Source of the DNA: Desulfatiglandales bacterium
GTDB taxonomy: Bacteria; Desulfobacterota; DSM-4660; Desulfatiglandales; Desulfatiglandaceae
NCBI GenBank assembly: GCA_963662465.1
Contig: OY759599.1
Location: forward strand, 4,096,001 to 4,160,000
Length of the DNA stretch: 64,000 nt
Direction: 5' to 3'
The notes below the pieces were generated by a model. The model was given only the letters and a program-made list of their open reading frames with translations. It did not search any database and was not told where the DNA came from. Position 1 is the first letter of the stretch, and every line of letters starts with the position of its first letter. Position numbers and translations under genes: made by a program. Positions 357-34,744 of this stretch are shown in pieces.

Positions 357-367
357 TTTTAACCACT

Positions 368-1836: not shown

Positions 1837-1843
1837 AAATCCG

Positions 1844-2237: not shown

Positions 2238-2246
2238 GATCTCCTT

Positions 2247-2852: not shown

Positions 2853-2876
2853 GATATGCCTTTCATAATAATTAGA

Positions 2877-2926
2877 GAGAAGCAAAGTCATTTGGTCAAA
2901 ACCGAGACCCTACGACTTTGCTTCTC
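2877..2926. repeat. 13-bp perfect inverted repeat (stem-loop) between porin and cbiM
   Basis: GAGAAGCAAAGTC (2877-2889) / GACTTTGCTTCTC (2914-2926). Confidence 0.7.
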
Positions 2927-2973
2927 ATAAGGCCCAGGAGGAGAGAGAGTTTTGGACCGTTTGTCAAAAAATT

Positions 2974-4113: not shown

Positions 4114-4139
4114 GTGTTCTTTCCTCCCCTACGGTTATG

Positions 4140-4916: not shown

Positions 4917-5051
4917 TTTATGATGCCTCCGTTTATGTTCTCGCTTCAATTTATGATCATTTGCGGCCGCTCTCGAAGCGACCGTTTTGTTTTGAATCGA
5001 TCCGATCGGTTCGCCTCTCAACCCGCATGCGCATGCCTTGCTGAAAACAGC

Positions 5052-5202
5052 CAAAAAAAAAGCCAAAAAGGCGGCTTCGGGGGTACACCCGATCCAGCCT
5101 TCTTGGCTTTTTTGGTTTTTGCTTCAGGTTTATCTCAGATGTGTAATTTCGTATTGCACATGCTATCGAGTGCTGAATAAACTCTTATTGCCGGGTTGTC
5201 AA
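5052..5202 (-). promoter_or_regulatory. Sigma70-like promoter and terminator-containing leader of the DUF4198-cbi operon
   Basis: TTGACA (5197-5202)-17 nt-TATTCA (5174-5179); GTGCAATACGAAATTACAC hairpin/box; GCCAAGAAGGC...CCTTTTTGGC-T9 terminator. Confidence 0.6.
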
Positions 5203-5242: not shown

Positions 5243-7163
5243 CACGGTAAATTTGTTCTAACAGGTATCACGCTTGGGGCACTGAATTTTTGGTCATCTT
5301 GAGATAGTCGAAGACACCCCTTACGTTCTGCGTGAGCTGGCGCATTTTCTGGGCTACACTGCGAACGCCTTTCGCCTTAATGACGCCCACCGCGAATCTA
5401 CGCAGCCTGGTCATGTTTTCAGGACCATTGCCGGTTCTTATTCGGCTTCGATCTTCGTCGTAGTTCCAGTCGATGATGTAATGGCACTCGTTTTCAATGC
5501 TCCAGTGACCGCGATTGATAGAAAGTACACGTTCGGGATTCGCCTGATCAGGTGATTGACTCGTTATGCCGTAAGCAACCTCAACTGTGCATTTACCGGT
5601 TTTCTTGTTTGTAACTTCTCTCTGGATCATAAAAGCCTGGCCGACATACGGGAAATCCAGGTATAGGTTAAGTTCGGTAGTCGTCCATATTTTGCGCACT
5701 TCGATGCGACCATGATCGGGAGCATCGTGTTGTATGAAATCAGGATCGTTGCAGCCCTCAAAATACAGGGAAATGTCTTGAAGTAATGTGGGCTGGTTGT
5801 TTTTGGCGATGAAATGGTAATGGGCGTTGCGTTGCTCGACCAAATATTTAGCAAAAGTCCTTTGGGTTAGCAGTGCGTCAGCTGAAATGACTTTGCCTTC
5901 GATATCGATCGCGTCCAGTAAAGGGGCAGCCGTTTTGATTTCATTGGTTCGCTTGAGTTCGTCTTTGCCTTCTACAGGGAGAGAACCGACTTTTTTTGGG
6001 TGTAACAGGTCTTAGTTTGATGGCCGACAGCACTCATGATGTGAGTCTGATAACCTTGTTCATCGATGGCATTACACATGGTTTTTCCATCGATGGCCAA
6101 GCTTTCGTCCTGTTCACCGTAAAGCAGATTCCAACGCTGGAGAGCTTTGTCGAGTTCTGTGGGGTCAACGCGAACCAGAACATCACGGATAGTAGACTGA
6201 CTGGGAGCTACATAGCGCTTATTTTCATATCGGCAACGGAAACGCTCAAGGGCTTTTTGTCCAAGACCATTTACCCAATCGGATATCGCCAGATAACCGC
6301 GCATTCCGCACAGTGTTGCGGCGGTGGCAATGGCCAGAACAGTGGAGAGCCTGTGACGTCGTCCCTGGGATCGACGCGGGTCGGGAATTTGAGCAAAAAA
6401 GTCGGGTAGAGATTTCATATGTTCCGCACTGAGCATGATTTTGTAACCTCCTGTAAGATATGGTTTTTTGAGAACAGGTCGGGATAACAGTGCTTGAACA
6501 TTGGAAACCAATGGTTTAAGAAAAACCATTTTCGGTGAATCCGCTTTATCGCTGTAGCCTTGGCGAGTTCGATGAAAACCCTTTGTTTTACCAACATATA
6601 TCCAATTAGACGCTCGATATACGGTTCCGTGGAATTGCTTTGGGTCCACAAAGGTTTCCAGGAGTACAACCGGATGCCCGAAACGCTCCTGCCAATCAGC
6701 CTGCATTCGCTTCCGACATAATGAAAGGATACGGGATGCGAGATTCGGAATATGCCATTCGGGCAAAATTAGAAAACGACTGTTATTGGTTACCAGTTTC
6801 AGTCGATCGTATTGATGGCGAAAATTCCATCCGATCCAGCTGTCCCTTGGTGTACATTTCAAAGCGGGAGCAGAAAAACTGACAAGCGCAATCCACTCAC
6901 TATTTAGTCTAGCTGTATACCAGAGGGTTTCGCTGATCTTGGGAAGAGCGCCCAAATAATGATGCGACTGCATCAGATGCTGAAAGCGTTGTTCTTCAAG
7001 CGGGCGGACTATTTGAATGCGGACTTGCTTAACGTTCAAGAATTTAAACCCCGAATTGGTTTGGTGCCTGTCACAGTATATACACCATCCGAGGGTTTCT
7101 GTCCATAATGTAGCGCAACTTTTATATTTTATTTGGATAATTCGGAAGAATAAATTCACCCTG
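5243..7163 (-). mobile_element. Complete ISAs1-family insertion sequence carrying an N-terminal DUF4338 domain
   Basis: Imperfect TIRs CACGGTAAATTTGTTCT / CAGGGTGAATTTATTCT; 10-bp TSD ACCCAAGATG at 5233-5242 and 7164-7173. Confidence 0.92.
5268..7039 (-). CDS. DUF4338-ISAs1 DDE transposase, split by a probable -1 frameshift at 5990-5997
   Basis: DUF4338 motifs (HHYLG, NNSRFLILP, LETFVD); ISAs1 motifs IPDPR, AIDGKT, NEI, ADALLTQ, RGHWSIEN, EDRSRIR; A AAA AAG at the frame junction; start uncertain (TTG 7039). Confidence 0.85.
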
Positions 7164-7297: not shown

Positions 7298-7464
7298 TTG
7301 ACAGAAAAACCGGCACTTGTTATAGGACCCGAATTCGTACGGCGCAAAACGAAATTGCGCGCATGATTCAAAGCGTAAAGACTGACACAATTTAGGTTTT
7401 AACAAAACAGGCCAAGAAGGCAATGTCGGATTGAAGTCCGGTGGTGTCTTCCCGGCCTTTTTTT
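7298..7464 (+). promoter_or_regulatory. Sigma70-like promoter and terminator-containing leader of the first TonB receptor gene
   Basis: TTGACA (7298)-17 nt-TATAGG (7321); GCGCAAAACGAAATTGCGC; GGCCAAGAAGGCA...TGTCTTCCCGGCC-T7. Confidence 0.6.
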
Positions 7465-7487
7465 ATGTGCAATGGAAAAGGGAGGGG

Positions 7488-8790
7488 ATGATTGAAAAGA
7501 GTGAGACCATATGGGGTCATGGGACGTTTATGTTCCTGGGTCTCTGGGTCGTGATGGTTTTTCTGCTGGGGACGTCGGTTTGCCCGAGTGATGCGGAAGA
7601 GCCGGAAGACAAGAAGGCCATCGCCCAAACGGGAGAAAAAAAGGCAGGCGCCGGAAAGGCCGTGCAACTGGAAGATGTGACGGTGATGGCGGCGCAACCG
7701 GGCGTTGAAATTACGCCGGATAAAACCGTCATTCGAATGGATGAGTTCGTTAAACCGGGAGATGTGCGAACCCTTACGGACGTGTTGAAAACCATGGGGG
7801 GCATCGACGTTATGCGCGTTAATCCCATGATGGCCAGTCCGGGAGACGAAGTGTCCATTCGGGGTATGAACGAGGGCCGTCTGGTGGTGGAAATCGACGG
7901 CAGGAGAATCAACCATAGCGGCTACTATGGAAGGTATATCGTGGACTGGTCAACGCTGAACATAGACGATGTCGAAAAGGTTGAAATCATCCGGGGTGGT
8001 CATTCGGTGCTGCATCCCTTTGCCATCGGCGGCGTGATCAACATCATCACCAAAAAGGGCAAAAAAACCGATGATCCCAAGCCCAATGTGCGCGCCAAGG
8101 CGGGTGTGGGGGCCTTCACCACCACCACGGAATCCCTTTCCATTGACGGCGGGGCATTCAATGTGGTGGGCTATGATTTTTCAGTAAACAATGGTTCCAC
8201 CAACGGCTACTTGCGGAACAACTACCAGGACAGCACCACGCTCAATGGACATTTAAGTTTCTTTATGCCCATGGACGCGGTGCTGGAACTGGGGGCCAAG
8301 CATGCGGATGTAAATTACGGATTTCCAGTGGTAAACGACCCTTCCCGGGCCGATTACGATGCCGGCTCTCCCAACTTCTATGCCAATGCCGACCAGCTCA
8401 GGCACCTGAACTGGCCCCTTTAGCAAGGTGACCGTGGGGTACGAATATCAACTCCTGGGCGCCCCCACTGAAATTTCGGACCTGTTCCGGGTTAACTCCG
8501 GGTACATCCAGGATGTCATCACCATCGGAGATCAATGGCGCCTTACGCCGGGGGTTCGTTATTACCACGTGGATATGAGCACCTACTACTCCCAGTTCGG
8601 CAAAGGATGGCCCGTAGCCGGCAATACGGAGACGGATGAGGGGTTTTATCCCAATTCCCCACTTCAAACTCTGGGGCGGTGAAATCGAGACGAGCCTTCG
8701 CTTGGGCCGGTTTCAGGGGACCCTTTCCTACAACTATCAAAACTACAATGCGGACGATACCGGATTTGAGGCGGAATGGTGGATCGCCGG
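7488..8790 (+). pseudogene. TonB-dependent receptor, plug intact and barrel fragmented
   Basis: LEDVTV TonB-box-like segment, VSIRG, VEIIRGGHSVL..AIGGVINIITK; stop at 8423, then short barrel fragments in shifted frames (DQWRLTPGVRY; GGEIE). Confidence 0.8.
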
Positions 8791-9202
8791 GGAGAAACGG
8801 TCCAGGGGGAGATCATCCGCATGGGCAATCTCACCGCCATCTATCGGAGAGAAGGAAGGATACGCCGCCTGGCAGTTGCAGGAGATGGCATGTGCGAAAA
8901 ATGCCTTTCAGAAGGCGCTTCAGCACGCGGAACCGAAAAGCGACACGGCTTTGAAAGCGTCCCATGCACTGACGGCCATCCGGCAAATCACGGATGCAGC
9001 GCAAAATTGAGTTTCCAGGACCAAGGCAACTGCACCTGAGCTATAATTCGGCCCCGTCAATACAGTCCACGATTTCACGGGGTGAACGTCCAGGGGGGCA
9101 ATGAATATTTGCCTTAGGGTCAAATACTAAATAATCCTCCGGTGTAAAGCACTTGAGATGAGAAACTTAAGGTTCAATACTCGTTACGGAGTTTCGCAAC
9201 GC

Positions 9203-9496: not shown

Positions 9497-9678
9497 GAAG
9501 GCAATTTCGACAATCGAAGTCCGGAGGACGGTGTTCGCCTGCCAGGGTCATCCGCCGTCCTCCGGGTTAAGCGCCCCCGTGAAAAAGGAGGCTCGGTTCA
9601 ATATTACCGGTGCATCTCTTTCTCGTCAAGCGGGGAATTCAAGATTTTGAACGGATTGACACAAGGAGGAGAGGCATA

Positions 9679-11910
9679 ATGAAAATGATGTCGTACAGGA
9701 AAAAGTTATGGGCAGGTTTCATCTTCATCGGAATCATGAACGTCATGTTGCCGTTAACGGCGGCGGCAGAGGAAGAAGCAACGGATCTCGGGAATCTCGT
9801 CGTCACCGGCGAGAAGCTCTTTGTCCCCACGATGGAATCGGATGAAACCGTCTATACGGGCACCAAAGTGACCAAAGAGGGGATCGAGAGTGAAGGGAGC
9901 AAGGCGCAAACCAGCGTTTACCAGGCCATCGATATTCTTCCCGGAATCAGTGTGGAAAGCGCTGATCCATACGGCCTTGGCGCAGAGCAAAGCGCTATCC
10001 GGGTCCGGGGCATGCGCGGCTATCTTGGCGCCATGACAGTGGAAGGGGTGCCCAATTATGGCGGCAACCCCATCGGTCCTCGGGAATATCTTTACGACAC
10101 GGAGAATTTCCAATCCATTTCAGTCTACAAGGGGGCTGTTCCGGGGGACCTGGGAACGGGCGTTGGAGATCGTGGAGGCGCTATTGAGTTGAGTCCGCAA
10201 TGGCCCGGTGAAACCTTCGGAGCGCTGCTCAAGCAAGGGGTGGGCACGGATGGTTACCATCGGAGCTTCTTGCGACTCGAATCCGGTTCGTTGACCGAGG
10301 CTGACACCCGATTTTCCGGATCCTATTCTTACACCCAGGCCGAAAAATGGAAAGGACCGGGTGAAGCCGGCCCCAGGAACAACGCAAACATAGCCTTGTC
10401 GCAACCGATCGGCGACCATGTGGATGTGAAGGTCTGGTTCAATTACAATGATCTGAAGAAAAATCTTTACAGGACACTCAATTATAACCAGATTCAGAGC
10501 CTGTCGGCCAATTACAAGTTTGATTACAATCCGGATCTTACGGGAACGAAAGCTCAGGATCTCTATTATTACGATTACAACCGGGGCAGCTTCGAAAACG
10601 ATGATGTTCTTGCCCTTATCACGATTACACCCTTCGATCGGTTGAAATTTACCTTCAAGCCCTACTACAGCCATGAGAATTCGGAGATTTATCAGGGCGT
10701 GACCTCCGGCGGCGGCCGCGTCCAGAAGAGGAACAGAGAGATCAAGCGCCCAGGGGCAATTGGTGAAGTGACATGGAACAGCCCGTTTTTCACGACGGCC
10801 CTTGGTTATCATTTTGAAAAAAGCGATATGAAGATTTACACAGAGAACTACGGCATCACCTCATCCGGGCTCAACTGGCAGGGCTATGGCAACTTTGCCT
10901 CACCCAGTGACTCCTATATCAACAGCCCTTACTTTAAGATTGCCGGGAGTCATGAGCGCTTCGACTGGCAGGCAGGGCTCAAGTATTTCAGATATGATGA
11001 AGGCGCCAGCGAAGGATATGTCACGGATTCAAAGACATATGAGTTGATAAGAGCGCCTGATCTTGACCGGGAAGAGAGAGTCTACGATATTCTGCTTCCC
11101 ACCGTCGGGGCCGCATTCAAGTTTACTGAAAGCGTTCAGGCCTATGCGAGTTATGGAAAGAACTTTATTCGCCCCTACGCATACATGCCCCTGGTAAATC
11201 TCTACAATAACTACCGACAGAGGTTCATCGATGCCGGGATCACCTTGAACGACCTTTTTAGCGGGTATGAAATGGAGCAGACAGACGCCATTGATTTCGG
11301 CGTACGATGGAATACCCCCTGGTTTGACATCACGCCCACAGTCTTCTTCAATAAAAGCAAAAACCTGTTCACCAATGTTTATGACCCGCGGGTCGATCTC
11401 AGCTACCAACAAAACAATGCAAAGGCTACAGGCTACGGTATCGATGTGGGAACCAACTTCTACCTTGCCAGACCCCTGACGTTTTTCGTCAATCCAAGCT
11501 GGACGGTTCTCACATATGATGACGACATTACTGATTCCAAGGGAAATACAATTCCGCTGAAAGGCAATCAGGTGGTGGATACGCCCGAATTCATGATAAA
11601 AGCCGGTTTGGTTTACAAATGGAGTGATCTTGAGGTTATTCCCATGGTGAGATGGCTAAGTTCGCGATATGGAAATGCGGAGAACACCCAAAAGGTCGAT
11701 TCCTACGCTATTGTTGATCTGCGACTGACCTATGCACTGCAAAATATCCCTGTTGCCCGGGCATTGAAATTCTCTTTGGACCTGAACAACCTGTTCAATA
11801 AGGAGTATATTTCCGTTATCAGTGCCTCGGATTATACCACGGGTGGAAAGGCCGGCTATTACACCGGTAGCCTGTTCACGACGGTGTTTACGGTATCTCT
11901 GGAGTTTTAG
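9679..11910 (+). CDS. TonB-dependent outer-membrane receptor
   Basis: AGGAGG RBS, signal peptide, LVVTG TonB box, plug (IRVRG, VYKG), LNNLFNKEY, terminal Phe. Confidence 0.92.
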   Translation: MKMMSYRKKLWAGFIFIGIMNVMLPLTAAAEEEATDLGNLVVTGEKLFVPTMESDETVYTGTKVTKEGIESEGSKAQTSVYQAIDILPGISVESADPYGLGAEQSAIRVRGMRGYLGAMTVEGVPNYGGNPIGPREYLYDTENFQSISVYKGAVPGDLGTGVGDRGGAIELSPQWPGETFGALLKQGVGTDGYHRSFLRLESGSLTEADTRFSGSYSYTQAEKWKGPGEAGPRNNANIALSQPIGDHVDVKVWFNYNDLKKNLYRTLNYNQIQSLSANYKFDYNPDLTGTKAQDLYYYDYNRGSFENDDVLALITITPFDRLKFTFKPYYSHENSEIYQGVTSGGGRVQKRNREIKRPGAIGEVTWNSPFFTTALGYHFEKSDMKIYTENYGITSSGLNWQGYGNFASPSDSYINSPYFKIAGSHERFDWQAGLKYFRYDEGASEGYVTDSKTYELIRAPDLDREERVYDILLPTVGAAFKFTESVQAYASYGKNFIRPYAYMPLVNLYNNYRQRFIDAGITLNDLFSGYEMEQTDAIDFGVRWNTPWFDITPTVFFNKSKNLFTNVYDPRVDLSYQQNNAKATGYGIDVGTNFYLARPLTFFVNPSWTVLTYDDDITDSKGNTIPLKGNQVVDTPEFMIKAGLVYKWSDLEVIPMVRWLSSRYGNAENTQKVDSYAIVDLRLTYALQNIPVARALKFSLDLNNLFNKEYISVISASDYTTGGKAGYYTGSLFTTVFTVSLEF

Positions 11911-11958
11911 ATCCCTTCGACGAAAAGAAACAATAGCATCCAACTGGAGAAGAAAATA

Positions 11959-13596
11959 ATGAAAAGCGTAAAGATATGGACCGTAATGATGGCGATCGGC
12001 TTACTTATGGCCTGCTCGATGGCCGCAGGGGCCAAAAAAGTTGAAGCAGGGCCGTCAGGCAGTTATTGCGTGGTGGGCATTGGGCCGGGGGATGCGGACC
12101 TTTTGACGGCAAGGGCCGTATCTGTCATCCGCAAGGCGGATATTGTGTTCTGCAACTCGGAAACCCGTGAGAAGTTGGCTGGGCTTGTGGACTTTCAGAA
12201 CAAGCAGGTGCTGGATGGCTATGGGACCCTGTTCCGTTTCCATGGAAAGGTTTGCGGCGCCCTCAGCGAGAACGAGCGCACCCGGCATAAGATGACCTGT
12301 GAAGAGTACCACAAGAAGCAGGCGGAATTCGCGACCCTGGTTCGCGGAGCAGTGGCCGAGGGCAAGAACGTGGTCATGTTGAGCCATGGAGATCCTACCA
12401 TTTACGGACCGGACATCTGGACGCTCAAAGAACTGGCCGATCTGCATCCCTTTGTGGTGCCGGGCCTGAGCGCCTTCAACGCGGCAAATGCAGCCCTTCA
12501 GGTGGGACTGGGCGAGGTGATTCTCACCGCACCTTTTCAGGGAAAGGACGAAGAAAAGGGAAAAGACAGCATCGAAAACCTGGCCGAACACCAAAGGGCG
12601 ACCCTGGTGATCTTCATGCCCCGAAATATTGAAAGACTTTTGGCAAGGCTTAGAACCTCCTGTAATCCGAATACGCCAGTGGCCGTTGTCAGCCATGCGG
12701 GGCAACAGGGCAAGGAAAAGGTGATCACCGGTACGGTGGCGGACATAGCTCGGAAATTAGTGGGACAGAACACCAGGTTTTCCCTGGTCTATGTGGGCAA
12801 CGCATTGAACGAGGCCCAGCACAACGGGAAGGTTTTGAAAAAGGGTTCAAGACCCGGCAAGTTCTATCTTGTGGGGGTAGGGCCCGGCGACCCGGATCTG
12901 GCCACCCTCAGGGCGCTTGAGGTCATGGGAAAAGCGGATCTGATCTTCGCCTCAAAAAGGCTCGCTGAACGTTTCCAAAAGGAACTTTCCGGGAAAGTGG
13001 TCATAAACGGTTATCATCGGCTCTTTCCCTTTTACGGCAAAAAGTGTTCCAAAGTCAGCGAAGAAGAAAAAACAAGAGAAAGGATGAGCTGTGAAGAATA
13101 CCATCAAAAGCAGGCGGAATTGGCCCGATTGGTTCGCGAGGCCGTGGCGGAAGGCAAAACCGTTGCAATGCTTGACAGCGGGGACCCGCTCATTTACGGC
13201 CCCTGCTCCTGGACCCTAAAGGAATTCAAAGACATACAATCCGAAGTCGTACCCGGCCTGAGCTGTTTCAACGCGGCCAACGCGGCCCTTGCACAGGGCG
13301 TCACCGAAGGAAAGCGTTCCCATTCCGTTATTTTGGCTTCGGGCTGGTCCGTGGAGAAAATGGCCGCGCTTCAAAGCACTCTGGTGCTTTTCACCATGCG
13401 GACCGAATTCAAGAAATTCATTGACGCCCTGTCCAGACACTATCCATCCGATACGCCCATCGCCATCGTCTCCAGCGCGGGTTATGCACGGAAGGAAAAG
13501 GTGCTGAGGGGAAGGCTGGACAGCATCATGGCGCAGACGACAAAGGAGCGCCTGCCTTTTGAGTACATGATTTATGTGGGGGATTTCCTTAAATGA
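11959..13596 (+). CDS. Exported protein with two tandem tetrapyrrole (class III SAM) methyltransferase domains, CobM/CbiF-like fold
   Basis: Two copies of VG.GPGD.DL.T.RA, GDP.IYG and VVPGLS.FNAANAAL; N-terminal signal/lipobox LMAC. Confidence 0.85.
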   Translation: MKSVKIWTVMMAIGLLMACSMAAGAKKVEAGPSGSYCVVGIGPGDADLLTARAVSVIRKADIVFCNSETREKLAGLVDFQNKQVLDGYGTLFRFHGKVCGALSENERTRHKMTCEEYHKKQAEFATLVRGAVAEGKNVVMLSHGDPTIYGPDIWTLKELADLHPFVVPGLSAFNAANAALQVGLGEVILTAPFQGKDEEKGKDSIENLAEHQRATLVIFMPRNIERLLARLRTSCNPNTPVAVVSHAGQQGKEKVITGTVADIARKLVGQNTRFSLVYVGNALNEAQHNGKVLKKGSRPGKFYLVGVGPGDPDLATLRALEVMGKADLIFASKRLAERFQKELSGKVVINGYHRLFPFYGKKCSKVSEEEKTRERMSCEEYHQKQAELARLVREAVAEGKTVAMLDSGDPLIYGPCSWTLKEFKDIQSEVVPGLSCFNAANAALAQGVTEGKRSHSVILASGWSVEKMAALQSTLVLFTMRTEFKKFIDALSRHYPSDTPIAIVSSAGYARKEKVLRGRLDSIMAQTTKERLPFEYMIYVGDFLK

Positions 13597-13631
13597 CCAA
13601 CGAAACCAATTTACGGCTCAAGGAGGGACCA

Positions 13632-14453
13632 ATGAAGACCAGATTTTTTTTCATGACTATTTGTTTGGCGATCACCATGATCGCCGGTTCTCAAGCCTTT
13701 GCGCACAATATCTGGATTAACCCGGAGAATCATTGCCCGCAGGTGGGAGAAACCGTGGATATCGGAATCGGGTGGGGGCACAGCTACCCCGCCGGTCGTG
13801 TTGACCAGGAAATGAAGCCGGGAATGTTTGGGTATATCCGGATTCTGGACCCGGATGGAATAAAAGTGGAACCTGCGAAATTGTCCGAAAAACGCTACCG
13901 GTTGAAAATCGAAAAGGAGGGTGTATATCTTGTGACCGCGGGAATTAAGCCCGGAGTCTTCACAAAGACCCCTCAGGGAAGGCAATGGAGCGACAAGAAA
14001 GGGGTGAAAAATCCCATTTCCTGTACCAGTTTTTGCATTGAGGCGAAAACGGTGATTGTCGCCGGGGCGAATGACAAAAATCTCATGGCGGCGACCGGTC
14101 AGGAACTTGAGATTATTCCCCTTTCCAATCCAAAGATGCTGAAGCCGGGGGATGAGCTGAGCCTCATGGTGATGTTCAGGGGAAAGCCCGCGCCGGACGT
14201 TGCCGTCAACGCCACCTACGCCGGTTTTGCGGATGGAAAAAAGCCTAAAGATATTGCTCCCCATAGACAAGTCAAAGGCAAAAAGTCCCATTTTCCGGTC
14301 AGCACCAAGACCGACAGTCAGGGCAGGGCATTGATTCCCTTGACCAAATCCGGCTACTGGATGATTGTTATTTCTCATAAGAGCCCTTACCCGGATAAGG
14401 AGACCTGTGATGAGTATATGCACAACATGGCCTTTACCTTTCAGGTCCAATAG
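13632..14453 (+). CDS. DUF4198 periplasmic protein
   Basis: Signal peptide AFA-HNIWI, GWGH, LEIIPLSNP, KTDSQGRA, GYWMI. Confidence 0.85.
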   Translation: MKTRFFFMTICLAITMIAGSQAFAHNIWINPENHCPQVGETVDIGIGWGHSYPAGRVDQEMKPGMFGYIRILDPDGIKVEPAKLSEKRYRLKIEKEGVYLVTAGIKPGVFTKTPQGRQWSDKKGVKNPISCTSFCIEAKTVIVAGANDKNLMAATGQELEIIPLSNPKMLKPGDELSLMVMFRGKPAPDVAVNATYAGFADGKKPKDIAPHRQVKGKKSHFPVSTKTDSQGRALIPLTKSGYWMIVISHKSPYPDKETCDEYMHNMAFTFQVQ

Positions 14454-14546
14454 GCGTAACCGTTTTCACAGGCAGGTTTCTGCCTTAGACAATCCTGATG
14501 TCAATTATCATCAACTTACGATGTTTCTTATATTAACGGTTTTGTG

Positions 14547-15044
14547 ATGAAAAAATTTCTACGGTCCTTTCTTCTCCTCTTCCTTCTCGTCTTCATTCTT
14601 CTGCGGACGTCTTTTGATGCGTGGTCCCACGGGACGGACTACAGCCTTGTCAAAGACGCGAATTTGGCGGCTATTGAATTCCATTACTCGGACGGCGAAC
14701 CCATGTCCTATGCCGAAGTACTTGTATTCAGCCCGCAAAACCGCCAGGTGGAACATCAGAACGCAAGAACCGACAAGCATGGGAAGTTCGCCTTCTGCCC
14801 GGATATACAGGGGGCCTGGCTGATCACCGCGAATGACGGCATGGGCCATTTGTGTGAGGCAACGGTGGCGATAGGCCCGGAAACGTCCTTTGAAAAGGCT
14901 GCCAAGCCGCAGGGTTATACCGATTCCGGGCATCCTCTTCAGGGTTCAAAGATTTTAAAGATCATTTCCGGACTCAGCCTGATATTGAACCTTGCATTTG
15001 CAGCCGAATTCTTTCATCGATGGTTAATCGCCGCCAAGGGGTGA
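14547..15044 (+). CDS. CbiL/NikL-like metal uptake accessory protein
   Basis: Signal peptide then HG, YSDGEPMSYAEV, RTDKHGKFAF.PD, DGMGH, C-terminal TM. Confidence 0.65.
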   Translation: MKKFLRSFLLLFLLVFILLRTSFDAWSHGTDYSLVKDANLAAIEFHYSDGEPMSYAEVLVFSPQNRQVEHQNARTDKHGKFAFCPDIQGAWLITANDGMGHLCEATVAIGPETSFEKAAKPQGYTDSGHPLQGSKILKIISGLSLILNLAFAAEFFHRWLIAAKG

Positions 15045-15048
15045 TCGA

Positions 15049-16401
15049 ATGGAAATGGCACAGGAAGAGCTTCAACGGGGATTCGGGCTGTCAACAGCCA
15101 CATATATGGTCATCGCCAGCATGATTGGAACCGGGATTCTGGTTTCCCCCGGGTACATGATGGCGTCTCTCGGGAATTACCCCGTTATATTCGGGCTTTG
15201 GGCCATCGGCGGGTTGCTGGCCCTTTGCGGGGCACTTTGCGTGGCGGAATTGGCGGCCGCCCTGCCGCGGGCGGGTGGGGAGTACGTTTACCTTCGCGAA
15301 GCATACGGTCCCATGCCCGCCTTTCTCTCCGGTTGGACGTCTTTTTTTGTCGGTTTCTCGGCGCCCCTGGCAGTGGCCGGCTATGTTGCGGCTTCATACC
15401 TTTTGACGCCGTTTCAGTTTGCTAAGGACGAAACGGAACAAATGATCAAGGTGGCGGCCGCCGTCATTATCGTTGCGGTTACTTTGCCCAATCTTCTGGG
15501 CCACCGTCAGTCCGCCTGGACGCAAAACCTCACGACAATTCTCAAGCTGGGTCTGTTTGTGGTTCTGGTGGCGGCCGCGTTTTTATGTGGCGATGGGCGC
15601 CTGGCGCACATTTCACTGGGGCAGCCCATGGGAAAGGTGGGACTGGAAACCGCGGCGACACAGTTGTTCTATGTCATGTTTGCCTACAGCGGTTGGAACG
15701 CTGCAAGCTATATGGCCGGCGAGGTGAAAAATCCCGCGAAAACCCTCCCGCGGTCACTGCTCCTGGGTACTGGGGTTGTCATTGTGCTTTATTTAGCGCT
15801 CAACCTTGTTTTTGTCTATGCAGTTCCTCTGGCCGGGGTGGGATTTGACAATGCGGAACAGGTCCCCCAGATGGCCGTCAGAAATTTATTTGGCGTGAAG
15901 GCTGCGAGCGTTTTCAACGTTATGTTGGGATTGACGTTTCTGGCCACGGTGAGCGCTTTCATTATCACCGGTCCCAGGGTCTACTATGCCATGGCAAAAG
16001 ATGGATTGTTCCCATCATTGGCGGGGCATGTCAGTCCAAAAGGACGGGTCCCCGTCTATGCGATGATCTCGCAGAGCGTCTGTGCCATCGTCATTTTGTT
16101 CGTGACGGACTTCCGGAACCTGTACCAGTATACCTCTGTGGGATTGTCGGTTTTTGCATTGCTTGTTATCGGCGCCGTCTACGTCCTCAGGTGGCGCCGG
16201 CCGGATATGGAAAGGCCGTTTCGTCTGCCCGGATATCCGGTTGTTCCGGCGATCTTCCTGGCGGTAATTCTCTTCATGACGGTGTTCGCCTTCAAGCAGT
16301 GGCCAAAGCCATCAGCTTATAGTATCGGTAGTATCCTTGCCGGTATCCCGGTGTATTATGCCTGGACCTTCTATGTTCGCCGCTTCGGAAGCCCTGCTTG
16401 A
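15049..16401 (+). CDS. APC-family amino acid permease
   Basis: MIGTGI, LPRAGGEYVYL, FAYSGWN, GEVKNP, PRVYYAMA; ~12 TM segments. Confidence 0.92.
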   Translation: MEMAQEELQRGFGLSTATYMVIASMIGTGILVSPGYMMASLGNYPVIFGLWAIGGLLALCGALCVAELAAALPRAGGEYVYLREAYGPMPAFLSGWTSFFVGFSAPLAVAGYVAASYLLTPFQFAKDETEQMIKVAAAVIIVAVTLPNLLGHRQSAWTQNLTTILKLGLFVVLVAAAFLCGDGRLAHISLGQPMGKVGLETAATQLFYVMFAYSGWNAASYMAGEVKNPAKTLPRSLLLGTGVVIVLYLALNLVFVYAVPLAGVGFDNAEQVPQMAVRNLFGVKAASVFNVMLGLTFLATVSAFIITGPRVYYAMAKDGLFPSLAGHVSPKGRVPVYAMISQSVCAIVILFVTDFRNLYQYTSVGLSVFALLVIGAVYVLRWRRPDMERPFRLPGYPVVPAIFLAVILFMTVFAFKQWPKPSAYSIGSILAGIPVYYAWTFYVRRFGSPA

Positions 16402-16473
16402 TGATTTGTAACCACTTCAATAAGCATGGGGGTGATTTGATGCCTGATGTATATGGAAATGGCCGTGCAGCGT
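16049..16473 (+). repeat. Diverged direct duplication of 1..~423 (permease 3' end plus cbiO 3' tail)
   Basis: Colinear high identity continuing past the permease stop into the His-rich cbiO tail, ending abruptly near 16473. Confidence 0.85.
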
Positions 16474-16493
16474 GGTAGCAGTCAAAGAACTGA

Positions 16494-17177
16494 TTAGCTG
16501 GTAATGATGTAAGATATGGCCATTGGCCCATGCACACCTTGTACTCGTATCAACTCAATATCAGCCGTAGTACTGGCGCCGGAAATAAAGTTAACTGAGT
16601 TTGGCAATCCTATAGCAATCTGTTCCCGGAGAAAAGACATCGCCTGGGTGAGACGGGGACGAAGATCCTGTTTGCGGATAATCGTTACTGTGTATGCAGG
16701 CAGGAGAGAAACCGAGCGACCGGAACCAAGATGACTGAACATCACAACGGCGCCGGATTCAGCAAGCGCAAGTTCTGCTTTTGCAATGCCGACTGATGCC
16801 TGCTCGGCATTTGTAATATTTTCCTTACGTGACAAGGTGAGGTCCCATATTTTCAATTGATCAAAATGATTTTTTAAAACGTCAAAGGTGTCATGTTCAC
16901 TAAAAAAATCCTGATCAGCCAACACAACCGGTCCCTTACCAAAAGCAGCAACCGCCTTGATAATGGTTTTATTGAGATCGCCTGATTCACATTGATAAAC
17001 AGTGGTCCCGGAAGCCTCAGCGTTTCTTATAAATATTTTTTCCAGTTCATCTATGCCGATATCCTTCAGGTAGTGGTGAGTATGGGGAATACTCAAAGGC
17101 GTTGGCTCAACGGGAACAGTGTTGCGACCGAGACAATTTGATATCCGTTTGATAAATTTTTCTTTTCCGTCAATCAT
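16494..17177 (-). CDS. lutC: L-lactate utilisation protein LutC (LUD domain)
   Basis: ALAESGAVV, GRSVSLLP, FISGASTTADIEL..VQGVHGP. Confidence 0.9.
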   Translation of the reverse strand: MIDGKEKFIKRISNCLGRNTVPVEPTPLSIPHTHHYLKDIGIDELEKIFIRNAEASGTTVYQCESGDLNKTIIKAVAAFGKGPVVLADQDFFSEHDTFDVLKNHFDQLKIWDLTLSRKENITNAEQASVGIAKAELALAESGAVVMFSHLGSGRSVSLLPAYTVTIIRKQDLRPRLTQAMSFLREQIAIGLPNSVNFISGASTTADIELIRVQGVHGPMAISYIITS

Positions 17178-18579
17178 TTTGCGCCTCTTCCTTTTTATGT
17201 TTTCTGAACCAGTCCCTGAATCGTTTTTGGGGAACTTTCGGCAACTCTCTTTCTTTATACCATTCTTTCATTGGTCCGATTTTAGGAAGAAGGTTATTAA
17301 AACGGGTCAGTTTCGTTCCCAGATCGTAAAGGCCGCTACTACCGATAACCTGCGAATAAAGTCCCATGATGAAGGTCTCAGCTTTTCCCGTGAGTTGTTT
17401 TTCTTCGGCAACAACACGGCGGTGTTTAAGGATAAATTGATAAAGAGGAATTTTTACCGGACAGACATCGTTACAGGCGCCGCATAAGGAACAGATCTTT
17501 ATCATATCTTTATACGCCTCATAGCCGGCAAGAACGGGAACCAGCGCAAGGCCAAGGGGGCCTGGATACAAAGCGCCGTAGCCATGACCACTGATATGGC
17601 GGTAAGCAGGGCACTCAAGCATACAGGTTCCGCAGCGAATGCATCGCAAAACATCCCTGAAATCGCTTTCCAGCACATGAGAGCGTCCGTTGTCAACGAT
17701 GATAATATGCAGTTCTTCCGGACCGTCCTTGTCATTTTCTCCCTTGGGCCCGGTCATAAAACTTAAATACGATGTCAGTTTGGCGCCCACCGCACTGCGG
17801 ACCAGCATACTGAAAAGAATATCGAGTTCGACAAAGGTGGGTACAATACGCTCCATCCCCATAAACACAATCTGGGTCTTTGGCGTTGTGGCGACAAAGC
17901 GGCCATTGCCTTCGTTGGTTGCCAAGGTGACGGTTCCGGTTTCAGCAACCGCGAAATTACAGCCGGTAATACCCACATCCGCGGTCAGAAATTCCGTCCG
18001 AATTTGCTTGCGGACAAAACAAGTAATGTTTTCCGGTACATTATCTCCAGTATAGCCCTTTTTTTCGGCAAAGACCTCTCGAATCCTGTCACGGTTTTTA
18101 TGAAGGGCCGGAACAACGATATGGGAAGGCTTGTCATGGTCATCTGTCTGGAGGATGTATTCGCCAAGATCCGTCTCAACAACCTCAATGCCGGCCTTTT
18201 CAAGTGCTTCATTCAAGCCAATCTCTTCGGTGACCATTGATTTTGATTTTACCGCCTTGCCGGCTTTGATCCTGTTCAGGATTTGAAGGGCATGATCAGT
18301 GGCTTCCCGGGCAGTTTGGGCAAAAAAAACCTGGGCGCCATTTTGGGTGGCCTTGTCAGCAAACCGGTTCAAATAATAATCCAGGTTCTCCAAAACATGA
18401 CTTCGGATAGCCGCCGCATTTTCCCGCCACTGTTCGTAATTTCCCAGTTCTTCAAAGGCGTCCGAACGTTTCCGGTTAAGCAGATCCTGAGCTCTGGCAA
18501 TGGCGGTGCGCATGAACTTGTCGGCAAGTTCTTTTTCCAGGCGTTTATTTAAAGGGAGATCACTTGTTTTGATGCTCAT
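17170..18579 (-). CDS. lutB: L-lactate utilisation Fe-S protein LutB
   Basis: VKSKSMVTEEI, ETDLGEYI, PSHIVVPALH, CIRCGTC...CP and CSLCGAC..VCP ferredoxin motifs. Confidence 0.93.
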   Translation of the reverse strand: MSIKTSDLPLNKRLEKELADKFMRTAIARAQDLLNRKRSDAFEELGNYEQWRENAAAIRSHVLENLDYYLNRFADKATQNGAQVFFAQTAREATDHALQILNRIKAGKAVKSKSMVTEEIGLNEALEKAGIEVVETDLGEYILQTDDHDKPSHIVVPALHKNRDRIREVFAEKKGYTGDNVPENITCFVRKQIRTEFLTADVGITGCNFAVAETGTVTLATNEGNGRFVATTPKTQIVFMGMERIVPTFVELDILFSMLVRSAVGAKLTSYLSFMTGPKGENDKDGPEELHIIIVDNGRSHVLESDFRDVLRCIRCGTCMLECPAYRHISGHGYGALYPGPLGLALVPVLAGYEAYKDMIKICSLCGACNDVCPVKIPLYQFILKHRRVVAEEKQLTGKAETFIMGLYSQVIGSSGLYDLGTKLTRFNNLLPKIGPMKEWYKERELPKVPQKRFRDWFRKHKKEEAQND

Positions 18580-18603
18580 GTTTTAAATCCTAAATTGGCT
18601 GGG

Positions 18604-19335
18604 TTAGTCTTTTGCCGTCAGCGCTTCGACAATGTGCAGAACTTCAATTTTGTGTCCTTGACGCCGGATACGACCCTCAATGTTCATCAGGCAGCCGGCA
18701 TCAGCGCCGATTAGATAGTCGACACCTGCTTTAACGATATTGTCTACCTTTTCAGCAACCATGGCGCCGCTTAGAGGGCCAAGCTTGACGGCAAAAGCGC
18801 CGCCGAAACCACAACATTTATCCTGTCCCGGAAAAGATACCATCTCAAGATCCCGGATGTTTGCAAGAAGAGTAAGCGGGGGCTCTTTGACGCCAAGGAG
18901 ACGGGTCATATGACAGGATGGATGATAGACCGCTTTGCCTTTCAGTCTTGCGCCAACATCAGTAACGCCTAAGATGTTAACTATAAAATCCGTTATTTCC
19001 CAGATTTTACCAGCCAGAATTTTGGACATGGATTCCCATTTGGAATCACCCTTGAAAAATTCAGGATACTCTTTGACCTGCCAAACGCAAGAACCACTTG
19101 GGGCTACAATATATTCACAATCATCTTCCAGCAGTGCAGCCATGAGGGTGCGCATACCCTTTTTTGCCTTTTCGTAAAAACCTGAATTGACCAGAGGCTG
19201 GGCGCAACAGGTTTGCTTTGGATTAAAACTGACTTCGCAACCCAGTTTTTCAAGGAGTAGGACGGAATGAATTGCGATATTGGGGAAAAGGGTGTCACCC
19301 AGACAGGTGGCAAAAAAAGATACTCGTTTGGTCAT
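18604..19335 (-). CDS. lutA: L-lactate utilisation protein LutA (CCG domains)
   Basis: FATCL.D, QTCCAQP, PSGSC, YHPSCH, CCGFGG.F, D.GCLMNI; ATG at 19335. Confidence 0.92.
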   Translation of the reverse strand: MTKRVSFFATCLGDTLFPNIAIHSVLLLEKLGCEVSFNPKQTCCAQPLVNSGFYEKAKKGMRTLMAALLEDDCEYIVAPSGSCVWQVKEYPEFFKGDSKWESMSKILAGKIWEITDFIVNILGVTDVGARLKGKAVYHPSCHMTRLLGVKEPPLTLLANIRDLEMVSFPGQDKCCGFGGAFAVKLGPLSGAMVAEKVDNIVKAGVDYLIGADAGCLMNIEGRIRRQGHKIEVLHIVEALTAKD

Positions 19336-19439
19336 ATCCAAGTCCTCATTAATGTGAGATATCGCCGTAGTTTGATTTTTCAAATGTGCAACTGACGCGC
19401 CGGTTCTCCAGCCCACACGCCGATGTAGTTGTCCTCACA

Positions 19440-19623
19440 AGATAATAACATAAGACGGCGGGCAACGCCATGATCAAGGTGTTGACCCCAGGGCAAATTT
19501 GTTCTATTTGTAAACCTTTGATATCAAAACCTTATGAAGGACACATCAATTCAAACAAATCAATGGATTAGCGTTAGAACAAATTCACCGTGGTGTTGAC
19601 CCCGAGGGCTGTGATGCCGCCGA
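19440..19623 (-). pseudogene. Internal remnant of a second cbiM copy, interrupted by a MITE
   Basis: With 19489-19602 removed, the sequence aligns to cbiM 2503-2572 (GATAATAACATAA.ACGGCGGGCA..GCCATGATCA.GGTGTTGACCCCGAGGG..GTGATGCCGCCGA). Confidence 0.8.
19489..19592. mobile_element. 104-bp non-autonomous MITE with ISAs1-type ends
   Basis: Ends CAGGGCAAATTTGTTCTA / TAGAACAAATTCACCGTG; 10-bp TSD GTGTTGACCC at 19479-19488 and 19593-19602. Confidence 0.85.
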
Positions 19624-19701
19624 TTGATAATTTTGTCGTTGACAAGGAATTATTTTTGTGACCATCTGAAAACCCTTTTGGAATCCGAAAACGGTGACGT
19701 T

Positions 19702-20586
19702 ATGCACGATATCAACTACTTTCACGAGCACGAACTCAAAGAACACGATTTCCTGGGCTGCTGTAAAGACTGCCAAAACAGCCTGAACATCATTAAACCT
19801 CATATTCTGGCATTTGCAGATAAAATTCGGAAATACACGCCGCAGATGCTACAAGACCTGCCACCGGACGAGCTGTATCGACTCTATCAGCTTTTAGACG
19901 ATCTGGCTCACATGAACGCGGGCGCACATCTGGCCGGTCTTATCCTTGAAGAGGAAGCGATCAAGTCCGTACTGCCGGTCATTCGCGCCTATTACACCAT
20001 GTTTTTTTCCATTCATGAAACTCAGTTGGCTGAAGCATTGCTTCATGCGGACGATGCTTGGAAGACCCTTTCCGGGTTTCCCCTTTATCCGCGTTATGAA
20101 GCATTGATCAAAGGGCAGATGGAATCCATGCCCGATTTGATCACCACAAGAATCGCTTTCATCGGGTGTGGTCCTGTGCCCATGAGCCTGATTCTCATGG
20201 CAAAGCTGTATGGGACATTGTCTCTCGGGTTGGATGCCTCCAAAGACTGTGTTCGGATGGCAAAGGCAGTCATCCGGACACTGGGATTGGGGAATCAGGT
20301 CGAAATCATGGTGGGAGATGATACGTCCCTTGAAGATCACACCTGGGATGCGGTGCTGATAGCGGCCCTGGCGGAACCCAAAGCTCGGATATTTGAAAAC
20401 CTGCGGCGCATCCTGTCGGGACAAAACCGCAGGGTCCCCGTTATTTACCGAACCTATACGGGAATGCGAGCCGTACTGTATGAACCGGTCGGTTCCTCGG
20501 ATACACAAGGGTTCCGGATCGTTAAAGAGGTCTTTCCCACGGGCCGGGTCAACAACACCACGATTTTTGCCGAACTGGAGGATTGA
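19702..20586 (+). CDS. Nicotianamine synthase (NAS) family protein 1
   Basis: FPLYPRY, FIGCGPVPMS, AALAEPK.RIF, IYRTYTGMRA.LY.PV, P.GRVNNT motifs characteristic of NAS (archaeal MtNAS-like). Confidence 0.85.
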   Translation: MHDINYFHEHELKEHDFLGCCKDCQNSLNIIKPHILAFADKIRKYTPQMLQDLPPDELYRLYQLLDDLAHMNAGAHLAGLILEEEAIKSVLPVIRAYYTMFFSIHETQLAEALLHADDAWKTLSGFPLYPRYEALIKGQMESMPDLITTRIAFIGCGPVPMSLILMAKLYGTLSLGLDASKDCVRMAKAVIRTLGLGNQVEIMVGDDTSLEDHTWDAVLIAALAEPKARIFENLRRILSGQNRRVPVIYRTYTGMRAVLYEPVGSSDTQGFRIVKEVFPTGRVNNTTIFAELED

Positions 20587-21398
20587 TGGAGGTTACGTAT
20601 GAATCCATCCGGTGCGAATTGATCCGGATCGACGGGTTGTTGCGCACTCTAACAACGGATGACATCGCGCAGGCGCCCGAGCGTGTGTATCGCTCGCACC
20701 TGGCGGGTCTGAATCGTCTGGCGGCAACTCCCGTGCCGGATGAAATCGTAAAAAAACTGGCATCGGACGAAAACCTCATCCCCATGGTCGGACGCATCGC
20801 TCGGGTGAGACGGTTGATCGGATTAAAGCTGGAAATGCAATTGGCGGAATCCATCATTCTTCATCGGGACCCGTGGTCGCTGATCAAAAAATTCACCTAT
20901 TACGCCAACTATGTATCTCTGGCTCGCATGGAATTCGAGGGGGCAGGTCTGAAACCGGGGGCACGCGTCGTCTTTTTGGGCAGCGGGCCTCTTCCCCTCA
21001 GTCTGATCTGTCTTTCAGAGGCATATGGCATAAAAGGGGTGGGGATCGAACAGGACCAGAAAATTGCGGGGCTTTCAAAAAAGATGATTCAAACACTGGA
21101 TCTGGATCCTTTTATCACCATCCTCCATGGCGATCACTTCTCCCTGCCGATTGAGGAAACATGCGCATTGGTCATGGTGGGCGCCGATGCCGTACCGAAA
21201 AAATCTATTTTTGAACACCTTGCTTCCATATTTCCACCGGGGCAGATGATCTCCTACCGAATTTACGAAAAGGGTTTGCGGCGCCTTCTGGATGACCAGT
21301 CCATATTTGAATTGCCAAAGGAATTTAAAGAATGCGCCAGGGTTCACCCGGAACCGCCGGTGAACAATACCTGCGTGTTTGCCGTAAGGGTTGATTGA
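20586..21398 (+). CDS. Nicotianamine synthase (NAS) family protein 2
   Basis: LE.QLA, FTYYANYVSLARME, FLGSGPLPLS, KGLRRLL, HPEPPVNNT; start overlaps the NAS1 stop (TGATG). Confidence 0.85.
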   Translation: MEVTYESIRCELIRIDGLLRTLTTDDIAQAPERVYRSHLAGLNRLAATPVPDEIVKKLASDENLIPMVGRIARVRRLIGLKLEMQLAESIILHRDPWSLIKKFTYYANYVSLARMEFEGAGLKPGARVVFLGSGPLPLSLICLSEAYGIKGVGIEQDQKIAGLSKKMIQTLDLDPFITILHGDHFSLPIEETCALVMVGADAVPKKSIFEHLASIFPPGQMISYRIYEKGLRRLLDDQSIFELPKEFKECARVHPEPPVNNTCVFAVRVD

Positions 21399-32352: not shown

Positions 32353-32568
32353 ATAGCTTGATCAGAAAAAACCAATCGGCAATATCCATTTTTGGCTTCT
32401 TGTAATTCCCTTGTTGTCTCTGTATATTGGGGCGGCTCCTTATGATGAAGAGAAAAATGAGGAAGAAGGGATTTGGCTATGGTTTCAGGAATCATTGATG
32501 GTCGAGCGGCCTTCGGGCGTGGCTCTAATCAAGATAGAGGCAAAGCCCAAAAATGGCAAAACAGAAAT

Positions 32569-33762: not shown

Positions 33763-33794
33763 AGCTGTAATGCAAATTTCCGAGGCCTTTTGAG

Positions 33795-34733: not shown

Positions 34734-34744
34734 CGCCGAATCAA

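Follow-up and report, generated by a model that had tools for sequence, protein, structure and literature searches.

How methanogens and sulfate reducers acquire nickel and cobalt where sulfide strips metals from solution is an open question, and a locus of a Desulfatiglandales bacterium (Desulfobacterota; NCBI GenBank assembly GCA_963662465.1, contig OY759599.1, positions 4,096,001 to 4,160,000 of the forward strand) raises it in a concrete form. This 64,000-nucleotide (nt) stretch, here called the window, carries two adjacent genes of the nicotianamine synthase (NAS) family, NAS1 and NAS2, and the question is what they make and which metal it serves. Together with a nickel-type energy-coupling factor (ECF) importer, the NAS1-NAS2 pair is a testable candidate for a small-molecule ligand in Ni/Co acquisition. 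The reading we prefer, at a probability of about 0.5, is a two-enzyme pathway without the opine dehydrogenase CntM, which would lead to a nicotianamine-like ligand that is released for Ni/Co supply. That such a ligand is in some way tied to Ni/Co handling is, judging from the gene and protein sequences, likely. An initial annotation of the window had proposed a related system, with the two genes at the edge of an uptake island and the ligand recovered through a TonB receptor.

The two genes, and the site in front of them, are as follows (MtNAS is the NAS of Methanothermobacter thermautotrophicus):

19702..20586, plus strand: NAS1, MtNAS-like nicotianamine-synthase-family enzyme, 294 amino acids, ATG start

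20586..21398, plus strand: NAS2, divergent NAS-family paralogue, 270 amino acids, ATG start

19639..19667, plus strand: promoter-like site TTGACA-17 nt-CCATCT, just 5' of NAS1, read off the sequence

The genes are coupled end to end, as the initial annotation had it, the NAS1 stop codon TGA (20584-20586) sharing one base with the NAS2 ATG (TGATG); an alternative TTG lies at 20583, ahead of that ATG. The NAS1 start codon is confirmed by its 32 orthologues, all of which open MHD. Both proteins match PF03059 above the Pfam cut-off of 27.1 bits (NAS1 82.8 bits, NAS2 97.1 bits) and are about 31% identical to each other, and in a profile search of the whole 8.16-Mb single-contig genome they are the sole PF03059 matches; the control genome of Methanosarcina acetivorans was positive too. 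The annotation had also called the NAS1 motifs MtNAS-like rather than CntL-like, which agrees with a search of solved structures: the best relative of NAS1 is MtNAS (3fpe, 143 bits, E 9e-41, residues 62-289), as is that of NAS2 (89.6 bits, E 2e-24), whereas the solved chains of CntL, the NAS-family enzyme of the cnt metallophore systems, reach just 20-22 bits. The NCBIfam CntL equivalog NF033601 likewise gives 27.4 and 25.9 bits, far below its cut-off of 350. The MtNAS motifs YPRY, AALAEPK, IYRTYTGMRA.LY.PV and VNNT are present in NAS1. An AlphaFold model of NAS2 (pLDDT 89.1, pTM 0.85) has the two-domain NAS fold, an N-terminal helical domain plus a Rossmann domain, which for NAS1 was judged by sequence. 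By template-modelling (TM) score the NAS2 model matches MtNAS 3fpe at 0.85/0.86, CntL at 0.80 and generic methyltransferases at no more than 0.48, so that the alternative of ordinary class I methyltransferases is not borne out.

The equivalents of MtNAS Glu81 and Tyr107, whose roles are given in the accessible text of PMC10491745, are E106 and Y132 in NAS1 and E83 and Y109 in NAS2, invariant in 32 and 36 orthologues, respectively. The glycine-rich motif for S-adenosylmethionine (SAM) is kept as FIGCGPVP in NAS1 and FLGSGPLP in NAS2, with GSGPLP invariant in the 36 NAS2 orthologues. When the 32 NAS1-type and 36 NAS2-type proteins are aligned jointly, 32 positions are identical in 90% or more of the proteins of each set, among them the two catalytic residues and the SAM motif, and both enzymes look catalytically competent. 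Four positions are conserved differently from NAS1 to NAS2, namely R131 to N108 (the Arg of PRY), R229 to E207, M255 to L231 and L219 to M197. Because the two arginines lost in NAS2 lie near the catalytic Tyr and the PK motif, NAS2, with two positive charges fewer beside conserved active-site motifs, probably takes a different acceptor. NAS1 also has a His/Cys-rich N-terminus, MHDINYxHEHELxEHDFLGCCKDC, which is common to bacterial NAS1 proteins in the 32-orthologue alignment (residues 1-25 are encoded at 19702-19776) and absent from the Methanosarcina forms; it has no counterpart among solved structures. It is reminiscent of the Met-His nickel site at the N-terminus of HypA and similar proteins, and could be a candidate metal sensor.

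Whether the two genes belong together was judged from their relatives. Database relatives of NAS2 numbered 512 at E ≤ 0.001 among 2265 candidates. With one genome per species, there were 268 pattern matches, 238 of which encode a relative, and the best 80 yielded 79 loci; these were picked via NAS2, and are uninformative on NAS1-type genes without NAS2. Their bacterial hosts are Desulfatiglandales, Desulfobacterales, Desulfosarcina, Desulfonema, Desulfobulbaceae, Victivallales and a Tritonobacter, with Desulfosarcina variabilis and Desulfonema magnum among the carriers, and their archaeal hosts are Methanosarcina, Methanothrix and ANME-1. The closest named relatives by loci are Desulfatiglandales metagenome-assembled genomes and 'delta proteobacterium NaphS2'. 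In 64 of the 69 loci that extend at least 900 nt upstream of NAS2, the gene immediately before it, in the same orientation, is of the NAS1 type (tblastn with the window proteins). The five exceptions are one from Desulfobacterales (L048) and four archaeal loci (L068, L079, L086, L090), the latter with single or duplicated NAS2-type genes.

A tree of 135 rows, made up of the two window proteins and 133 of 143 open reading frames (ORFs) of the NAS cluster, ORFs below 240 or above 345 amino acids being excluded, falls into two clades (quick search, LG+G4; midpoint root for drawing only). Each clade has a branch support of 100 by the Shimodaira-Hasegawa-like approximate likelihood-ratio test (SH-aLRT), and each holds both bacteria and archaea: the NAS1 clade has 62 rows (54 bacterial, 7 archaeal) and the NAS2 clade 73 rows (55 bacterial, 17 archaeal). 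Two natural NAS1::NAS2 fusions, of 588 and 595 amino acids, come from separate sources and have different linkers. Within the same genus, the pair occurs in 6 of 10 other genomes; it is found in none of 30 further relatives searched, where one weak match (E 2e-4) is not NAS-like. A sample of the phylum has it in 8 of 401 genomes (about 2%), the source genome included, and in six of the seven other positives NAS1-type adjoins NAS2, the seventh ending at a contig end. Among 121 genomes of Methanosarcinaceae, 39 match the NAS2 model at E ≤ 1e-10 and 12 have a NAS1-type match beside it. Most of the remaining positives carry a lone NAS2-type gene (e.g. G431:C1:1776781-1777599), one genome has two in tandem, and some genomes carry a lone NAS2-type gene on top of a NAS1-NAS2 pair.

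These observations support the pair as a conserved functional unit. Strict adjacency, the stop/start overlap and the two fusions would also suit an obligate heterodimer, in which NAS2 (or NAS1) is non-catalytic and acts in regulation or in presenting the substrate, and the initial annotation had offered a heterodimer as one way for the two enzymes to act. We consider this improbable. The catalytic Glu, the Tyr and the SAM motif are invariant in both clades, many genomes of Methanosarcinaceae and ANME have an unpaired NAS2-type gene, and the NAS1-like MtNAS works alone (PMC10491745, in its accessible part); that both enzyme types are also found singly speaks against an obligate heterodimer. A complex prediction for NAS1 plus NAS2 scored 0.29, against a mark of 0.32, in a run without controls, and is counted neither way. 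Two separately active enzymes of one pathway thus stay the preferred reading of the pair.

The metal is suggested by the neighbouring genes. The ORFs of all 79 loci were clustered, the clusters were named with Pfam, and those present in at least three loci were called recurrent. ECF importer genes, i.e. CbiM, CbiQ, NikL-like and DUF4198 (the last of which we take to be NikK), occur in 23 of the 79 loci, a figure that becomes 21 of 32 when loci shorter than 15 kb are set aside, and lie 75-7521 nt from the pair; with the stricter coverage of a tblastn search, the linkage is seen in 18 of those 32. Several Desulfobacterales have the one-strand order DUF4198-CbiM-NikL-like-CbiQ-CbiO-NAS1-NAS2, and in Methanosarcina the pair sits between CbiM and CbiQ-CbiO. 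NikK and NikL are extra components of nickel-type ECF importers, NikK/NikL-type systems being assigned mainly to nickel by comparative genomics, and Deltaproteobacteria and Methanosarcina were singled out as having the most extensive Ni and Co proteomes (accessible parts of PMC2667541 and PMC545781). The source genome encodes carbon monoxide dehydrogenase/acetyl-CoA synthase (CODH/ACS) and [NiFe] hydrogenases. Of the metals named in the initial annotation, nickel and perhaps cobalt are favoured by the NikK/NikL-type ECF neighbour, and nothing points to zinc.

In the window itself the importer lies at some distance from the pair:

368..5066, minus strand: ECF-type Ni/Co importer operon (Pfam and NCBIfam), with M, Q and O components all present

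4140-5066, minus strand: DUF4198 protein, NikK-like (Pfam)

2974-4113, minus strand: OprB-like porin (Pfam/NCBIfam)

2247-2891, minus strand: CbiM (Pfam 200 bits; NCBIfam NF004905 285.8 bits, cut-off 173)

1081-2070, minus strand: CbiQ (Pfam 116 bits; TIGR02454 153.7 bits, cut-off 111.8)

368-1096, minus strand: CbiO (ABC_tran 112 bits)

5141..5159, no strand assigned: palindrome GTGTAATTTCGTATTGCAC, consensus GTGCAAT-N5-ATTGCAC, candidate operator of the DUF4198-OprB-CbiMQO operon

The importer, porin and DUF4198 genes of this operon had been placed within 9679-21398, and are in fact outside that span. In three same-genus genomes (L020, L021, L022), orthologues of this operon, 76-95% identical, are divergent direct neighbours of NAS1, and the palindrome is kept there. 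Allowing at most one mismatch, the palindrome (GTGCAATTTCGTATTGCAC) is present at just two places in the 8.16-Mb genome, each preceding an importer operon of the CbiM type; the second is perfect and lies between CbiM and a selenocysteine TonB receptor, about 12 kb before the window (G000:C1:4083808). The palindrome differs from the published NikR box GTGTTAC-N13/14-GTAACAC (as it appears in the accessible part of PMC545781) and from delta-proteobacterial Zur boxes, and NikR itself (PF08753) is not in the genome, the control being positive in five genomes. As for NAS1, the TTGACA site upstream of it is promoter-like, and TTGACA-17-ATATCT/ATATTT likewise precedes NAS1 in L021 and L022; a consensus scan did not list the site.

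Other neighbours vary with lineage. A pyridoxal phosphate (PLP) enzyme (Ala_racemase_N + D-ser_dehydrat) lies directly 3' of NAS2 in 31 of the 79 loci, all of them bacterial (e.g. L024:6817-7929), and a class I methyltransferase adjoins the pair in 16, six of them archaeal. These are likely tailoring steps. The PLP enzyme is absent from the source genome with the query used, and the methyltransferase finds only generic relatives there, at no more than 35% identity, and neither gene adjoins the pair here, so that the core is the two NAS genes. Such variable tailoring leaves the product open, and other SAM aminocarboxypropyl transferases take many substrates (accessible part of PMC10491745); the two enzymes might accordingly place an aminocarboxypropyl group on a cofactor, lipid, peptide or nucleoside, with the nearness of the importer reflecting island structure only. 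This explanation seems improbable to us, since all characterised PF03059 members yield nicotianamine-type ligands, the Ni/Co ECF linkage recurs in distant bacteria and archaea, and the MtNAS motifs are found in NAS1 almost letter for letter. A nicotianamine-type ligand remains the preferred product.

No exporter of the EamA or MFS type forms a conserved cluster in the 79 loci, the APC permease (3 of 79) being the only transporter of that kind to note, and no recurrent cluster near the pair is an opine dehydrogenase or a DapF-type racemase (CntK). The annotation had seen no CntM in the window, which agrees with the scanned window ORFs as well as with the conserved neighbours. Its proviso that a cntM elsewhere in the genome might explain the product is answered in part: PF10100 (CntM) and PF02317 have no match in the complete genome, a weak result in that the control genomes are silent too. 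In about five loci, genes for a FecCD permease, BtuF-like binding protein, ABC ATPase, FmdE/zinc-finger protein and TrmO-like protein turn up repeatedly less than 10 kb from the pair (FecCD/BtuF-type sets are among L026, L032, L063, L067, L073 and L079), and such a set could be a chelate uptake route in those lineages.

This pattern bears on where the ligand acts. The product may be an intracellular Ni/Co buffer or carrier that is never released, is made in step with the importer and passes ions to Ni/Co enzymes, comparable to plant nicotianamine. No exporter gene is conserved beside the pair, its constant partner imports the ion and not a chelate, and the archaeal loci have no outer-membrane or chelate-uptake genes except the FecCD-type set in L079. 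The MtNAS product co-purified with its enzyme (PMC10491745, accessible part), and the His/Cys-rich N-terminus of NAS1 could sense cytoplasmic metal. This remains a tentative alternative, against which stand the TonB receptor, periplasmic proteins and permease found directly 3' of the pair on the same strand in a same-genus genome, the recurrence of FecCD/BtuF-type chelate importer genes, and the fact that the bacterial relatives of this chemistry, the cnt systems, make secreted metallophores. Overall, we lean slightly to a released ligand: the TonB and FecCD-type neighbours of some lineages and the cnt analogy favour release, while the missing conserved exporter and the ion-type importer as constant partner favour an internal role.

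The remaining genes of the island bear on the proposed recovery through a TonB receptor, and the rows below give them in order, with the last three from a paralogous module in the 20 kb before the window (L107):

5268..7159, minus strand: transposase genes, DruA-like + DDE_Tnp_1_assoc at 5972-7159 and a DDE fragment at 5268-5843

7431..9010, plus strand: degraded PCPU-motif (selenocysteine) TonB-dependent receptor, covering NF049947 positions 22-285 and 542-584 only

9610..11910, plus strand: intact TonB-dependent receptor, 766 amino acids, Plug + barrel (Pfam/NCBIfam)

11959..13596, plus strand: double TP_methylase-domain protein, predicted periplasmic (PF00590 278.9 bits in two stretches; signal peptide)

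13593-14453, plus strand: DUF4198 protein, NikK-like (PF10670 143 bits)

14544-15044, plus strand: NikL-like protein (NF058648 42 bits, below the cut-off of 100)

15049..16401, plus strand: APC-superfamily amino-acid permease, 450 amino acids (PF13520 216 bits)

16494-19416, minus strand: lutCBA-like lactate-utilisation operon, between the APC permease and NAS1

19478..19603, no strand assigned: short element like the end of an insertion sequence (IS), with direct repeat GGTGTTGACCCC (19478, 19592) flanking inverted AAATTTGTTCTA (19495-19506) and TAGAACAAATT (19575-19585)

L107:8472-10583: intact PCPU-motif selenocysteine TonB receptor, TGA at codon 489, in LPCP*DYYWW

L107:10610-11545: 311-amino-acid TP_methylase-fold protein with signal peptide

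L107:11728-13218: nucleoside-hydrolase/FmdE fusion with signal peptide

The genes listed in the initial annotation are real, and five corrections of place, strand or identity apply to them, the importer's position being one. Of the two TonB receptors, the one at 7431-9010 is degraded, matching the intact upstream copy at 98% identity for 908 nt, with internal deletions beyond that point. The supposed CbiL-like gene at 11959-13596 encodes the double TP_methylase-domain protein, whose N-terminus, MKSVKIWTVMMAIGLLMACSMAAG, is a signal peptide. The NAS genes are not flush with the island, as the lactate operon lies between. The APC permease is indeed duplicated, with 94% DNA identity to a second copy (L107:19004-20000) that straddles the window start and ends in window 1-357; that copy is broken at codon 155 by an in-frame stop in place of the Trp of the 15049-16401 copy, and the stop is either a pseudogene mark or a sequencing error.

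The upstream module contains CbiO-CbiQ-CbiM, the intact selenocysteine receptor and the 311-amino-acid TP_methylase protein, along with the nucleoside-hydrolase/FmdE fusion, DUF3450-ExbB-ExbD-TonB and the second APC copy. Both PCPU receptor copies lie in a segmental duplication that also copied CbiO-CbiQ-CbiM and the APC permease. The signal peptides place the TP_methylase proteins and the nucleoside-hydrolase/FmdE fusion in the periplasm, and it is unlikely that periplasmic TP_methylase-fold proteins act as SAM-dependent methylases. The TonB/TP_methylase/nucleoside-hydrolase module was considered as corrinoid salvage; no B12 riboswitch was found, and an Rfam scan of window positions 1-30000 at E ≤ 0.1 returned no cobalamin or NiCo riboswitch, giving one chance microRNA-like match.

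The IS transposase genes are outside the system and mark rearrangement. In the ORF at 5972-7159, a DruA-like N-terminal region (PF14236, 97.6 bits) is joined to DDE_Tnp_1_assoc. The IS-end sequence of 19478-19603 also occurs beside the transposase near 5250. Its repeat GGTGTTGACCCC is present three times in the window against 0.32 expected, a count that 2 of 100 shuffles reach; it was set aside as a regulator site and is read as part of an IS-end remnant. The IS-end-like element, together with the operon adjoining the pair in L020-L022, suggests that IS-mediated rearrangement split the pair from the DUF4198-OprB-CbiMQO operon. The same parts as in the source window, there unrearranged and on one strand, occur in one same-genus genome (L017/L022) in the order NAS1-NAS2-PCPU-type TonB receptor-TP_methylase-DUF4198-APC. 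The TonB receptor/TP_methylase/DUF4198 set also adjoins the pair in L037 and L040, and relatives of the receptor at 9610-11910 do so in L037, L039, L040 and L066.

The initial annotation had proposed that a secreted ligand is recovered as a Ni/Co/Zn complex through the local TonB receptor and then the APC permease or the ECF transporter. The one-strand order in L017/L022 and the sets in L037 and L040 argue for it, and the adjacency of the TonB module to the pair in L022, L037 and L040 is beyond chance, yet it is not general. By tblastn, a TonB receptor is near the pair in 8 of the 79 loci, TP_methylase in 4 and APC in 3. Of the linkages sought in the neighbourhood survey, that to Ni/Co ECF genes was found in 21 of the 32 long loci and those to TonB and APC genes are occasional. 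The TP_methylase family is present in 44 of the 401 phylum genomes and the pair in 8, with two in common, one of which is the source genome itself (G000; the other is G266). Archaeal carriers have no outer membrane, the module is cut off from the pair here by the opposite-strand lactate operon and IS remnants, and zinc, as said, finds no pointer. Recovery by this route is thus doubtful as the general function of the pair, and release of the ligand for supply through the ECF importer is the version we carry forward.

From the observed family, fold, catalytic residues, pairing and linkage, we infer a chemistry, a metal and a release step. NAS1 and NAS2 would be two active SAM-dependent aminocarboxypropyl (aminobutyrate) transferases, co-translated and serving one pathway, which would proceed without an opine dehydrogenase to a polyamino-polycarboxylate ligand like nicotianamine or thermonicotianamine. 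NAS1 would probably carry out MtNAS-type transfers onto an acidic amino-acid starter, and NAS2 would probably use either a different, less acidic acceptor or what NAS1 makes; where other lineages have a PLP enzyme or methyltransferase, these may add tailoring. The ligand would serve nickel (perhaps cobalt) supply alongside the NikK/NikL-type ECF importer. In the leading version it would be released and keep Ni/Co soluble against sulfide, the metal then being passed to the periplasmic NikK/NikL components, or the complex being imported in some lineages.

Several points weigh against this pathway. With 8 of 401 genomes in the phylum sample and 12 of 121 in Methanosarcinaceae, the pair is too rare to be a general nickel-supply route. 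Both enzyme types also exist alone (MtNAS; NAS2-type in Methanosarcinaceae), and a joint product is not required. Among the 32 loci of at least 15 kb, no ECF genes are seen in 11; the lack of a conserved exporter near the pair in the 79 loci argues against release; and the searches for CntM-type genes in the complete genome were weak for the reason given. ECF importers of the NikM type are thought to bind the free ion, for which a chelator is not obviously needed, and the NAS1 promoter itself showed no metal-responsive element. A bolder version is correspondingly speculative: the pair may be an ancient, horizontally mobile two-enzyme 'nickelophore' pathway of strict anaerobes with heavy Ni/Co demand (complete-oxidising sulfate reducers, Methanosarcina, Methanothrix and ANME), in which two paralogous aminocarboxypropyl transferases, at times fused, would build a new nicotianamine-like ligand without an opine dehydrogenase. 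That ligand would draw Ni/Co away from sulfide and supply the NikK/NikL-ECF importer, its synthesis being gated by a metal-binding MHD...GCCxDC N-terminus of NAS1. Methanosarcina, among these hosts, is a genetically tractable genus.

Two further features of the window, away from the pair, are a restriction-modification-like trio at 32473-35224 (C-5 cytosine methylase, DUF4928 and a Vsr mismatch endonuclease) and a 1350-amino-acid hybrid sensor kinase at 54281-58333, with a PocR sensory domain, several PAS domains, HisKA/HATPase and a receiver.

The closest known system is MtNAS (PDB 3fpe/3fpf/3fpg/3o31), with which the pair shares the two-domain fold, the Glu81/Tyr107 equivalents, the SAM motif and, as proposed here, independence of an opine dehydrogenase. 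MtNAS is described as a single iterative enzyme, whereas here two paralogues, about 31% identical, are paired in 64 of 69 loci; NAS2 has Asn and Glu in place of NAS1 R131 and R229, and bacterial NAS1 has the additional His/Cys-rich N-terminus. Plant and fungal nicotianamine synthases also belong to PF03059 and are likewise one enzyme family making a ligand from SAM units alone, and nicotianamine binds Ni among other metals. In plants, however, a single enzyme links three SAM units and closes the azetidine ring unaided, for a product that acts inside the organism, and here there are two enzymes. The NikKMLQO/CbiMNQO ECF importers (Rodionov 2004; Zhang 2009) are matched in the window by M, Q and O components, with DUF4198 and NikL-like proteins as candidates for NikK and NikL, and differ in that there is no NikR here, the palindrome GTGCAAT-N5-ATTGCAC is a different one, and an OprB-like porin is part of the operon. 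NAS genes receive no mention as partners of ECF importers in the accessible parts of PMC2667541 and PMC545781. Nor was a description of paired NAS genes in Desulfobacterota or Methanosarcina found in the literature, including the accessible parts of PMC7438024, 10.64898/2026.08.27.747422, PMC10248798, PMC12454661 and 10.1101/641969.

Neither the enzyme family nor the notion of a nicotianamine-like metallophore is new. What appears, as far as seen, to be undescribed is a module of two synthases without CntM, the distribution of this module among anaerobes and the link that it has to the NikK/NikL-type ECF importer. The work of Laffont and Arnoux (Metallomics, 2020), reported to survey NAS/cntL neighbourhoods, may bear on this novelty. 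The cnt systems (staphylopine, pseudopaline, yersinopine and bacillopaline) consist of CntL and CntM, with or without CntK, an exporter and an importer. In them, as proposed here, a NAS-family enzyme moves aminobutyrate from SAM to make a metal ligand, there of broad spectrum, and the genes cluster with metal uptake, including TonB receptors in Gram-negatives. In contrast to them, a second NAS enzyme takes the place of CntM in the present system, in which no CntM, CntK or EamA-type exporter was found; the partner is an ECF importer of the NikK/M/L/Q/O type where theirs is an Opp-type ABC transporter, and the hosts are strict anaerobes where theirs are pathogens. If the proposed pathway holds, nicotianamine-type chemistry would extend to a CntM-free, two-synthase route, which could bridge the gap from the single enzyme of archaea to the cnt systems of bacteria.

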